Shown here piece by piece: positions 43,016 through 46,202 of a stretch of DNA of 49,055 bases (position 1 is its first letter; every line of letters begins with the position of its first letter). This stretch comes from a virus. Taxonomy: Duplodnaviria > Caudoviricetes. The position numbers and the translations under genes are program-made. The stretch is taken from IMG/VR virus record IMGVR_UViG_3300046779_001940, positions 1 to 49,055 of that record; one strand, given 5' to 3'. The notes under the pieces were generated by a model. The model was not told the origin of the DNA. It was given only the letters and a program-made list of their open reading frames with translations, and did no database searches.

Positions 43016-43330
43016 TTATTTTTGGTTTATACTAGCTCTAATCAAATCTTCTTCTTCCTGAGTAGTCACTGCTTTCCAATAACCTTTAGGACAGTCTGAA
43101 GCTAATGATCTGGTTTTCAGCTTTAAAGAACATCCACATTCTGAACAACAAGGTTGTGTCTTAGGAACAGCACACTTATCACCCTTGAGATCTATGAGAG
43201 GGCATTTTATGCATATCTCATTTCTGTAGTATGCAATCTCCTCAATGTGTTCTTTTTTGAACATGTTATTTCTGACTCCCTCAAAAATTTTACCACGTTC
43301 TTTCCAAATTTTAATTGCGTTATTCAACAT
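43016..43330 (-). CDS. Zn-finger protein
   Basis: CIKC...C...CCSECGC...KTRS...CPKGYW. Confidence 0.7.
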   Translation of the reverse strand: MLNNAIKIWKERGKIFEGVRNNMFKKEHIEEIAYYRNEICIKCPLIDLKGDKCAVPKTQPCCSECGCSLKLKTRSLASDCPKGYWKAVTTQEEEDLIRASINQK

Positions 43331-43703
43331 TGTCTAGATATTTTTCTTTTAGTTTTTCTACTGTTTTCTTTCTGTCTGCCTCTTGATCCATTACAGAGAG
43401 TATTCTCTCGTATTTTTCAACGTCAGCTTTCACATCCACACTGGTTTCATACATTCTAATTGATTCAGACGCATCAATTCTATTTAAGAATGAATTGTAC
43501 TTTTCCAGTTTCTTTTCTACACGCTGCCTTTTAAGCACAAAAGTTCCCATATTGGGAACATTCACAGAACAGTGCTCCATAGAACTTAGCTTTTTTTGAA
43601 CTGTTCTATAAAAAAAAGCAACTACATCATCCACCATTAGATGATCTAGCCCCAAAGATTCAGCTGTTATCTTTGATATTTCCTTACGCTTTGTTGGATT
43701 CAA
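43320..43703 (-). CDS. HU/IHF-like DNA-binding protein
   Basis: ITAESLGL...VDDVVAFF...SVNVPNMGTFVLK matches the HU fold. Confidence 0.7.
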   Translation of the reverse strand: MNPTKRKEISKITAESLGLDHLMVDDVVAFFYRTVQKKLSSMEHCSVNVPNMGTFVLKRQRVEKKLEKYNSFLNRIDASESIRMYETSVDVKADVEKYERILSVMDQEADRKKTVEKLKEKYLDNVE

Positions 43704-44079: not shown

Positions 44080-44101
44080 GGTTTTTAATGTTTATTAATT
44101 T

Positions 44102-44224
44102 TGGTACCATTCACTCAGGAGTTTCACCTGAACTTCCAATCACAATACACCTTTGCGAGATGCCTGTGAGCTGTTCCACCTAACAGCATTTGTCGTGCTT
44201 TTTTTACGCTTACACTAGTGTGGT
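44102..44224 (-). ncRNA. tRNA-like RNA with encoded CCA and the anticodon loop replaced by two hairpins
   Basis: ACCACAC-TA-GTGT(loop)GCAC ... TCAGG-TGAAACT-CCTGA-GTG(AA)TGGT-A-CCA, 31 nt downstream of tRNA-Met. Confidence 0.6.
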
Positions 44225-44255
44225 ACTGGCGACATATGCAAAATGCATTTCTTTG

Positions 44256-44330
44256 TTGCGGGGGTGAGACTCGAACTCACGTGGTTTGGCTTATGAGACC
44301 AAGCTGGAACCTCCTCCAGTCTACCCCGCA
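44256..44330 (-). tRNA. tRNA-Met (CAT)
   Basis: Acceptor TGCGGGG/CCCCGCA, anticodon arm TTGGT-CTCATAA-GCCAA, T arm GTGAG-TTCGAGT-CTCAC. Atypical D arm; CCA not encoded. Confidence 0.85.
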
Positions 44331-44612: not shown

Positions 44613-44900
44613 TTACCATACGATTGCAATGTCTCGCTCTGCAATCATCAATTTAAGATCGTCTTCTATTGAAACAACACCTGCATTCTGTAAAGAGTAT
44701 GTTTCTACAAACACTTTATCTCCAGGTTCAACAATAGTAACTTCGTCCCCAACAGCAAATACTTCTAATGCTGTCCATTTTGCCATCATCTCTGCTTCCA
44801 TTGCTGCTTCAGCTGCAGGATCAAGCATGATTTTAGATTCTGGCTTTTGAGGTTTAGTAAGCAACACTCTGGTTCCTACCAATTTTTTGAATTGTGTCAT
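44613..44900 (-). CDS. groES: GroES/Cpn10-like co-chaperonin
   Basis: KLVGTRVLL...EVFAVGDEVTIVEPGDKVFV...LMIAERDIAIVW matches Cpn10. Confidence 0.8.
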   Translation of the reverse strand: MTQFKKLVGTRVLLTKPQKPESKIMLDPAAEAAMEAEMMAKWTALEVFAVGDEVTIVEPGDKVFVETYSLQNAGVVSIEDDLKLMIAERDIAIVW

Positions 44901-44927
44901 TGTTTATTTATTTGGTTATTAAAATTG

Positions 44928-45000
44928 AGCCTTCTGTAGGAGTCGAACCCACAACCTGCTGAGTACAAATCAGCTGCTCTACCAGTTGAGCTAAGAAGGC
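44928..45000 (-). tRNA. tRNA-Thr (TGT)
   Basis: GCCTTCT-TAGCTCAACTGGTAGAGCA-GCTGA-TTTGTAC-TCAGC-AGGTT-GTGGG-TTCGACT-CCTAC-AGAAGGC-T, a canonical cloverleaf. Confidence 0.95.
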
Positions 45001-45007
45001 TTGTTTG

Positions 45008-45081
<74 letters not shown>

Positions 45082-45090
45082 TCATTGTAA

Positions 45091-45392
45091 TTGATTTGAA
45101 ATTCTAGTGGGGTTCCTGACTACCCACAAGTCCAACGCATGCCCCTTTTCACCCATAGTCCAAGTAAATGATCAGTTTACTTGTTAATGACTAGCTGGAT
45201 TGACTACCAGCACCTGCTGCGGAGATCAGTTATGTATATCTTCACAGGACCTCAGAGCTTATTGGTTACGCTACCTTTAAGATGAGTGGTTTTAACTCAC
45301 ATGCCTGACAACGTGCTTCCCAGTTCTTTTCAGAACGGTGACACTACTTTGACCCCTCTCAAGAGTCTATTCAGTCACAGAATACAAATCAA
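45091..45392 (-). ncRNA. Large (~300 nt) multi-stem structured RNA of unknown class
   Basis: No long ORF, GC-richer than the flanks, closed by the stem TTGATTTGTATTCT/AGAATTTCAAATCAA, with at least seven internal hairpins. Strand inferred from the adjacent tRNAs and G-U/GNRA patterns. Confidence 0.7.
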
Positions 45393-45441
45393 ATGTCAAA
45401 GAACGATTCAAGTTTAGTTTAAACTTGTAACGTTTGGTTTT

Positions 45442-45669
45442 TTACTCTGAAGTCTCAGCTCCACCTGGTCCGTCAGTATTTTTGTTTTCAGCATTATCAG
45501 GCGTTGTCATGTTTGCAATCATGATTGTAGCTTGAATACGCTTAGCTTCTTCAGTTACAGCCTTTGCTTGTAACTCTGCCAGCTGAGCACGTAATGAGGC
45601 TAGTTCAATCTGGCTTTTATACCAGGCAATAACCTCATCTCTTGTTGGTTCTTTTTCTTGTTCTGCCAT
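45442..45669 (-). CDS. Small coiled-coil protein (75 aa)
   Basis: First gene after the leftward promoter; heptads IELASLRAQLAELQA. Confidence 0.65.
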   Translation of the reverse strand: MAEQEKEPTRDEVIAWYKSQIELASLRAQLAELQAKAVTEEAKRIQATIMIANMTTPDNAENKNTDGPGGAETSE

Positions 45670-45711
45670 TATGTTAAGTTTTTTGTTAGAGTTTCATATG
45701 AAACCTCACTA

Positions 45712-45743
45712 CAAATATACTTTAAAAGTTTAAATTCTGCAAA
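45712..45743 (-). promoter_or_regulatory. Bacteroidota-type promoter (-33 TTTG, -7 TATATTTG)
   Basis: TTTG (45743-45740), a 20-nt spacer and TATATTTG (45719-45712): an exact match to TTTG-N19-21-TAnnTTTG. Confidence 0.75.
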
Positions 45744-45785: not shown

Positions 45786-46202
45786 ATGGAAGGCATGACC
45801 CTTATCACTACCCACCCTATTAAAAAGTCAGATCTTGGCTTTCATGGTAATCTTTTTGGAGGCAAACTTTTAGCATGGATGGATGCTGCTGCAGCTGGAT
45901 TTGCTATGGAAGTTTGTGATACACCACGCATGGTAACTCTTCTAATAGATAAGTGTGTGTTTAAAAAGTCAGCAAAAGAGGGACAACTGATTAAGATTTA
46001 CGGAAAGGTCATGCATGTAGGTACAACTTCCATTACACTGTACATGGAAGCTCGCGCTCATAACGTGTATAGTGGTACTCAAACTGTAGTTTTACATACA
46101 AACATGCGCTTTGTCAGAATAGATGAAGCAGGTGATCCTTTACCAATAGGAGAAAGAACACGTAAATTATATTCCAATGGAGAAAGCAATATTCAAGTTT
46201 AA
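45786..46202 (+). CDS. Acyl-CoA thioesterase (hotdog fold, YciA-like)
   Basis: DLGFHGNLFGGKLLAWMDAAA signature, VGTTSI and FVRIDEAGDPLPI. Confidence 0.88.
   Translation: MEGMTLITTHPIKKSDLGFHGNLFGGKLLAWMDAAAAGFAMEVCDTPRMVTLLIDKCVFKKSAKEGQLIKIYGKVMHVGTTSITLYMEARAHNVYSGTQTVVLHTNMRFVRIDEAGDPLPIGERTRKLYSNGESNIQV

Follow-up and report, generated by a model that had tools for sequence, protein, structure and literature searches.

A manA-derived non-coding RNA with two cores beside the tRNA genes of a crAss-like lake phage

The RNA locus and its neighbouring genes

The window, which is the whole stretch of 49,055 nucleotides analysed in this study, is a 49-kb fragment of a virus record that is 41% complete and was found to carry genes for portal, terminase and major head proteins. 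Among the best 15 of 145 records, terminases of gut crAss-like and Flavobacterium phages share 24-26% identity with that of the window, and the stretch is present in 20 of the 24 sequencing runs listed, nineteen of these twenty being from freshwater. The source phage is a lake phage of the crAss-like type. All of the hairpin arms named in the initial annotation were found at 45091-45392 on the minus strand, where the RNA is placed between a 75-aa ORF and the genes for tRNA-Arg and tRNA-Thr (Table 1). Its 3' end lies nine nucleotides before tRNA-Arg (45007-45081), as had been described, and the RNA is about 3.9 kb upstream of the terminase and portal genes on the same strand. The 75-aa ORF gave no match in Pfam or PHROG and is probably on one transcript with the RNA.

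Upstream of this ORF we found a TAnnTTTG motif which we take to be a Bacteroidetes-type -7 promoter box; a total of 62 such matches occur in the window. The RNA-library contigs of four studies stop at 45693-45696, two of them with adapter ends, the contig of a fifth RNA study stops at 45670, and in a sixth RNA run and in a DNA run the contigs go on past these positions. The ends at 45693-45696 are a weak hint that the transcript starts there, as the sequencing-run data are contigs, from which strand, level and processed ends are not readable. The contigs of runs X17, X18 and X19 stop at 45194-45217 and leave uncovered part of the 3' third, which is covered in X16 and X8. The X8 contig also bridges a gap shared by the other five RNA runs, and uncovered parts were given no weight. 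A 214-nt RNA-library contig of run X17 (record 6) matches two short pieces of the RNA and then has a different terminal hairpin; it is probably another family member in the same sample.

Several other features were observed around the RNA. A 95-aa ORF (44613-44900, minus strand), with counterparts at 41 related viral loci, looks GroES-like by eye, which is our presumption, and Pfam and PHROG searches give no support for this label. The tRNA-Met(CAU) gene (44255-44330, minus strand; 40 bits) has an unusual D arm, and a tRNA-like gene with an unreadable anticodon occurs at four related loci (L354, L355, L340 and L346). Between tRNA-Met and a 131-aa HTH-like ORF lies a GC-richer non-coding stretch with several short inverted repeats (44085-44255, minus strand), which may be another structured leader RNA and gave no convincing Rfam match at relaxed thresholds. 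A thioesterase-superfamily gene (45786-46202, plus strand; PF03061, E 6e-16) is transcribed away from the RNA operon, and a weak match to an HU/IHF-like DNA-binding protein was found at 43320-43703 on the minus strand (PF00216, E 0.026).

Table 1. Features of the RNA locus, in window positions.
Feature	Position	Strand	Basis
Presumed -7 promoter box, TAnnTTTG	45712..45719	-	motif match
75-aa ORF, directly upstream of the RNA	45442..45669	-	
Two-core manA-like RNA, whole, 302 nt	45091..45392	-	relaxed manA match, relatives, covariation, structure fit
Closing stem (manA P2), 5' strand, pairs with 45106-45091	45378..45392	-	folding, structure fit, one significant covarying pair
Outer core 5' module: GUGACUGAAUA, short helix 45375-45373/45348-45346, P3 hairpin 45367-45351	45346..45378	-	manA match, covariation, weight matrices
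L3 loop GAGA, putative kissing partner of 45225-45222	45357..45360	-	three significant pairs; 99% paired
Outer P4, single GNRA hairpin; manA L5 and L7 hairpins absent	45313..45344	-	Rfam consensus comparison, GNRA pattern
Connector helix, 5' strand (putative outer P8 = inner P3), pairs with 45142-45130	45299..45309	-	pair counting, structure fit; shared P8/P3 identity from module order
Putative inner, circularly permuted manA core	45146..45294	-	weight matrices place modules twice; covarying columns 45289-45153, 45290-45152
Inner P4 with palindromic loop A (45272-45267)	45251..45286	-	covariation, self-complementarity
Inner P8, two-sided L8: CUGA 45229-45226 for L9, UCUC 45225-45222 for L3	45213..45248	-	covariation, complementarity, pair counting
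Inner P9-like hairpin, GGUA loop	45194..45211	-	covariation, weight matrices, pair counting
Inner closing stem capped by hairpin B; loop UGAUCA 45174-45169	45156..45193	-	adjacent-base covariation; 48/52 self-complementary
Outer P9 hairpin; L9 UCAG at 45119-45116	45107..45127	-	manA match, covariation
tRNA-Arg(UCU), 9 nt downstream of the RNA	45007..45081	-	
tRNA-Thr(UGU)	44927..45000	-	

Relation to manA and conservation among phages

At the curated Rfam cut-offs, the RNA locus yielded the two tRNAs and no other family. In a relaxed search, manA (RF01745) was found to match 45097-45396 end to end with 23.9 bits (E 0.0015), the 5' and 3' modules being exact with two large insertions between them. 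The Rfam search suggested in the initial annotation therefore gave no strong match and a sub-threshold one, the manA cut-off being 55.2 bits. The RNA had been called unclassified, which holds in that no family reaches its cut-off but not in view of the end-to-end manA match, and the proposal of a new class of phage structured RNA is abandoned, as the RNA derives from the manA motif and does not form an unrelated class. The relatives scanned (see below) score 19-35 bits on manA, compared to 80-196 bits for single-core manA controls. The gathering cut-off (55.2 bits) is reached neither by the window RNA nor by the relatives scanned, and because of these scores the family is missed by standard annotation. 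Above cut-off, the relatives scanned gave only tRNAs and one nearby group I intron, and when 50,697 annotated phage records were searched by BLAST with the window RNA, tRNA fragments alone were matched. The exclusion of GOLLD, ROOL, tmRNA and RNase P made from the sequence was upheld: no covariance-model match to GOLLD or ROOL was found in the window (E up to 10) or in 20 relatives (E up to 1), the RNA being too short for either, and no family-model match to tmRNA, RNase P RNA or known ribozymes and no ARAGORN tmRNA call was obtained in the window.

The RNA shares with manA (RF01745; PMC2864571) the 5' GUGACUGAAUA module with its short helix (the manA feature UG-AC-UGAAUA, P3 hairpin and closing GU pair being present), the GNRA hairpin and the closing stem, within which the terminal P9 hairpin GGUA..CAG.AA.CC is also found. 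Complementarity of L8 to both L3 and L9 is present via the L8 of the inner core, and the location in phages near tRNAs is likewise shared. Unlike manA, which is under about 210 nt with a single core (173-207 nt in the first ten rows of the published alignment; PMC2864571, in part), the RNA is about 300 nt long (302 nt in the window) with doubled modules and two cores, and it scores below the family cut-off. No 5' P1 hairpin was found, P1 being poorly aligned, and the P4 junction with complementary L5 and L7 kissing hairpins is absent; the outer P4 is a GNRA hairpin only, the inner P4 is a palindromic hairpin, and there are two palindromic loops. The next feature is tRNA-Arg, whereas manA lies in the 5' UTR of metabolic genes, and the hosts of the RNA are a crAss-like phage and Prevotella Lak phages, whereas those of manA are cyanophages and Photobacterium. 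The two-core RNA thus seems to act like manA but fails manA membership on score, length, L5/L7 and the single core.

The RNA resembles GOLLD and ROOL in being a large ornate phage RNA near tRNA islands (PMC12286853, in part), whereas it is about half their length or less, has a different core and gives no Rfam match to them. GOLLD and ROOL form cages via kissing loops, some of them symmetric and palindromic (PMC12286853, in part), whereas for the two-core RNA a cage is only predicted. Single-core manA, under 200 nt, is described as assembling into 8-, 10- and 60-mers, the 10- and 60-mers being built from pentamers held by L5-L7', L8-L9', L3-L8' and GNRA contacts (10.64898/2026.07.01.735769, in part). 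Within the portions of the literature covered, no description of two-core or palindromic manA was found, and the supplement of this preprint may list longer variants. No motif match was obtained in the supplements of PMC10690425 and PMC8040213 outside files 1, 2 and 4, and 7 and 8, which may hold fragments of this RNA; PMC7266159 has 0 occurrences of manA, and the available parts of PMC7162821 and 10.1101/2020.02.04.933952 contain nothing on two-core RNA.

Relatives were collected with a 3'-hairpin pattern, which gave nine viral loci, and a looser pattern, which gave at least 120 (45 of 64 parts scanned); nineteen of twenty scanned loci from the looser pattern are ordinary manA above the cut-off. 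The distance between the 5' module and the hairpin is mostly 131-147 nt in ordinary manA and 247-259 nt in a second class. Viral, metagenome and genome contigs were then scanned further, which raised the number of loci to 387, and a profile of the first 32 members gave 150 matches, 77 of them distinct. A total of 62 distinct near-full-length relatives were retained (score of at least 100, model ends covered), so that the homologues sought by the initial annotation do exist. Fifty-two of them are below 95% identity, with a mean identity of 55%; the branch of the window comprises nine of the 52, and the window RNA is 38-49% identical to the others.

The relatives occur in the kin of the window phage, in jumbo-size phages and in Lak megaphages, on contigs of up to 554 kb. 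A full copy was found in all 15 Prevotella Lak phage records matched, together with a partial match in a 735-kb phage. Same-strand tRNAs are present in the fetched flanks of 29 of the 52 members and lie within about 130 nt in 21, while 23 have no tRNA there; an ORF of at least 50 aa starting within 120 nt with no tRNA before it was observed in ten. The hairpin pattern, which itself recovers only 22 of the 52 known members, found 29 stretches and no full-length member in 185,579 host genomes. A set of 151 genomes from a single host-like phylum, which contained no positive control, gave no member in a model search. With this distribution, manA-type RNAs are moved from an 'orphan riboswitch of cyanophages' to the tRNA islands of a crAss-like phage and the gut Lak megaphages. 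At one locus (L135:866-1077, plus strand) a group I intron match of 54.6 bits lies in a tRNA array beside a family member. A second type of single-core manA, with the L3/L8 pairing CGUGAG/UUCACG and about 80-93 bits where scanned, was found at L239 (genome_contigs, Cellvibrionales MAG), L014, L020, L036 and L173.

Covariation was assessed in a sequence-only MAFFT alignment of the 52 relatives with our own R-scape-like code, using 40 tree-based null alignments and an E of 0.05. In this test, which had been called for at the outset, 32 of 50,403 column pairs covary beyond the null. Twenty-nine of them are paired in 86-100% of the sequences, and the remaining three at 67, 79 and 83% because the branch of the window is misregistered. 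Pair counting in the 32-sequence alignment gave 82% of cells paired as compared with 63.5% when shuffled and 36-49% when slid, and the window sequence fits the derived structure in full. The folding energy of the window RNA does not stand out (z = -1.1, reached by 11 of 100 shuffles), the median z in 13 of the 52 members is -2.2, and single-sequence folding energy was dropped as evidence.

Two-sided changes were observed in most of the helices that had been named from the window, namely the first hairpin, the GNRA hairpin (GNRA loop in 50 of 52 members by pattern), CCUG/CAGG, both GGUA-loop hairpins, the UAGUC/GACUA stem with its capping hairpin and the long-range GCAUG/CAUGC helix. The closing stem is supported by one significant pair but aligns poorly outside the clade of the window, where it is 45% paired. 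The proposed UGACUG/UAGUCA pseudoknot was not confirmed, as its covariation with either loop is not above that of shuffles and the 5' bases pair locally with 45348-45346. The UGAGU/ACUCA hairpin, also proposed, is disfavoured: across 13 clade members its positions are 92% paired and show no two-sided change, whereas competing long-range pairs are 100% paired with one two-sided change, neither being significant alone. Covariation and relatives together bear out a conserved structured non-coding RNA heading the tRNA cluster, and the RNA can be regarded as real, highly structured and, from the comparisons above, manA-derived.

Arrangement of the cores and loop contacts

Judged from the alignments, the fold consists of two manA cores in one chain, the second being circularly permuted and inserted into the first with one helix shared by both. 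When weight matrices derived solely from 27 single-core manA loci were applied, each of three modules was located at two alignment positions, the inner site being among the two best in 43, 29 and 32 of the 52 members and the outer site in 31, 23 and 48. The order of the inner modules is permuted (UAAGGU, P4, P8 with L8, P9, the closing stem capped by hairpin B, and GUGACUGAAUAA) and the short helix beside the 5' module covaries in both cores; from these two observations, we infer that a single helix is at once P8 of the outer core and P3 of the inner core. The outer core carries L3 and L9 without L8, the inner core L8 and L9 without L3, and no partner of the inner L9 was found among the top covarying pairs. 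The inner 5' module of the window has drifted, with the inner site not among its two best, and the permuted inner core of the window reaches 0.4 bits with the manA profile. The permuted inner core is above the 99th shuffle percentile in only 24 of the 52 members, with medians of 3.05 bits permuted and 3.0 bits unpermuted. As these whole-profile scores are weak and show no gain over the unpermuted order, the duplication is argued from module order and helix geometry and not from profile scores. From the weight matrix for L8 no information was gained, 11 of 52 members being placed at the expected column. Loop numbers were mapped from the order of the Rfam consensus and not from the preprint figures; in that consensus L5/L7 and L8/L9 are complementary and L6 is GNRA, consistent with the names used in the preprint.

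The L3-L8 and L8-L9 kissing contacts of manA are retained and connect the two cores. L3 (45360-45357) and L8 (45225-45222) form four pairs in 50 of the 52 members through fifteen sequence combinations. Between L8 (45229-45226) and L9 (45119-45116), the pairing is CUGA/UCAG in 40 of 52 members, takes a compensated form in L317, L276 and L316, and ends in an A-G mismatch in nine of 52; for this count three rows were taken by eye and part of the set had been selected by a pattern that fixes UCAG. Both complementarities arise from one P8 end in single-core manA at 26 of 27 loci, L036 being mis-anchored. The covariation of these kissing pairs would fit pairing within a chain or between chains alike.

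Two further loops were found to be self-complementary, loop A in 51 of 52 members (7 of 8 types, p 0.007, at least 17 changes on the tree) and loop B in 48 of 52 (8 of 11 types, p 0.0003, at least 13 changes), as compared with 14% expected for a random 4-mer. The palindromes of loop A are GGCC, GUAC, GCGC, GAUC and wobble forms, and those of loop B are GAUC, AGCU, AAUU, CAUG, GCGC, GUAC and GGCC. Adjacent bases covary significantly in both loops, and as adjacent bases cannot pair within one chain this points to intermolecular pairing. Palindrome switching was taken as evidence of intermolecular bridges in OLE and GOLLD (PMC12286853, in part), and the loop core of the OLE L9.3 bridge switches between GGCC, GAUC and AGCU, the same set as in the two-core RNA (PMC12286853, in part). 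OLE, on the other hand, is a bacterial dimer of unrelated sequence, whereas the two-core RNA has two such loops on a manA scaffold. In the window, loop B is a perfect 6-mer, UGAUCA, and loop A is a weak wobble form, GCGU, whose 4-bp core has two G-U pairs. Pairing of loop A with loop B was rejected because their palindromes vary independently. The earlier suggestion of kissing loops, possibly intermolecular, is thus strengthened by the conserved L3-L8 and L8-L9 contacts and the two self-complementary loops, which are probably intermolecular. An extra stem is inserted in hairpin B at L176, L179, L201 and L161, and the palindromic core GCGC is retained in L176 and L179.

Possible assembly and alternative explanations

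Since single-core manA forms cages in the 2026 preprint, we consider it probable that the two-core RNA self-assembles into a closed RNA-only oligomer that would be an accessory stable scaffold or decoy particle for the phage, and the cage is likely to be of a shape not previously described. The RNA would be transcribed from the promoter at about 45715 together with the upstream ORF and the tRNAs and freed by excision of tRNA-Arg, with the closing stem shielding its ends. In single-core manA cages, L8 of one molecule binds L3 or L9 of the next molecule. As the outer P8 runs directly into the inner P3, one L8-L3' contact would now be a continuous helix, and the remaining inner L8 would hold L3 and L9 of the outer core of a neighbour, giving an even number of cores per ring as compared with five in manA. 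Loops A and B would each pair with the same loop of another molecule on two-fold axes; these contacts would stand in for the missing L5-L7 contact and tie the rings together as a cage, with loop B as the stronger self-contact in the window phage. The RNA may then be a natural covalent dimer of a cage-forming RNA, in which a kissing contact became a helix and two two-fold palindromic contacts were added, forming a cage or lattice of new symmetry (even-numbered rings) during infection by crAss-like, jumbo and Lak megaphages; we give this detailed picture slightly less than even confidence. More tentative still, and the least certain step, is the role, most plausibly that of a nuclease-resistant tRNA-island particle which, in the infected cell, would bind or divert host proteins of RNA handling or defence.

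The same two-core fold might instead close L3-L8 and L8-L9 in cis, the palindromes then giving dimers or open chains as in OLE or ARRPOF and no cage. In principle one fused core could fold back onto the other, covariation does not tell in which chain the partner lies, the L5-L7 contact that forms rings in manA is missing and loop A is weak in the window phage. We nevertheless regard closure in cis as unlikely, as the solved single-core manA has these contacts between molecules in rings of five, ring closure by the two-core RNA would presumably need a very different angle, and two independent self-pairing loops give a valency above that of a simple dimer. A cis-regulatory element or riboswitch controlling downstream expression, as first proposed for manA, which has been presented as a candidate riboswitch located in 5' UTRs (PMC2864571, in part), would be in line with a possible alternative hairpin at 45299-45283 that is kept in the clade of the window (92% paired). 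It is very improbable, as the next feature is a tRNA and not an ORF (a same-strand tRNA within about 130 nt in 21 of 52 members, only 10 of 52 being ORF-first), no terminator-like site was found near the 3' end of the RNA, and the palindromic loops would be left unexplained.

The end of the RNA nine nucleotides before a tRNA and its many invariant unpaired purines might also suit a self-cleaving or tRNA-processing ribozyme that frees the 5' end of tRNA-Arg. No ribozyme family was matched at E up to 10, however, tRNAs lie at very different distances and are missing from the fetched flanks at 23 of 52 loci, which makes a ribozyme highly unlikely; of the ribozyme, scaffold or decoy roles suggested by the initial annotation, it is the scaffold that gains support. 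A ring acting with the DNA packaging motor in the manner of phi29 pRNA would agree with the location upstream of terminase and portal noted above (about 3.9 kb, same strand) and with an architecture suited to head-to-tail loop contacts, yet the RNA is missing from three of five near-complete related genomes, one of them close, and is common to unrelated jumbo-size and Lak phages, where it lies among tRNAs. We consider this the most improbable of the readings.

Only a handful of families are known to form natural RNA-only cages. The family described here is a ready cryo-EM target, with contacts predictable beforehand from covariation. If the assembly reading is true, RNA quaternary structure would evolve by duplication, circular permutation and fusion as protein assemblies do.

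Among the five near-complete related genomes, the RNA is present in two and missing from three. One relative lacking it (L355), 88% identical to the RNA-bearing L350 over 330 nt upstream, is 322 nt shorter here and without the adjacent tRNAs; because a close relative has deleted the RNA, it is accessory, and this natural deletion offers a with/without comparison. The RNA occurs within 2.5 kb of the downstream 95-aa gene at 11 of 41 loci. In L354 and L355, a deletion scar in which the closing-stem ends form one long hairpin was observed about 97 nt upstream of the 95-aa gene (L355:2404-2470), with tRNA-Arg and tRNA-Thr missing as well.
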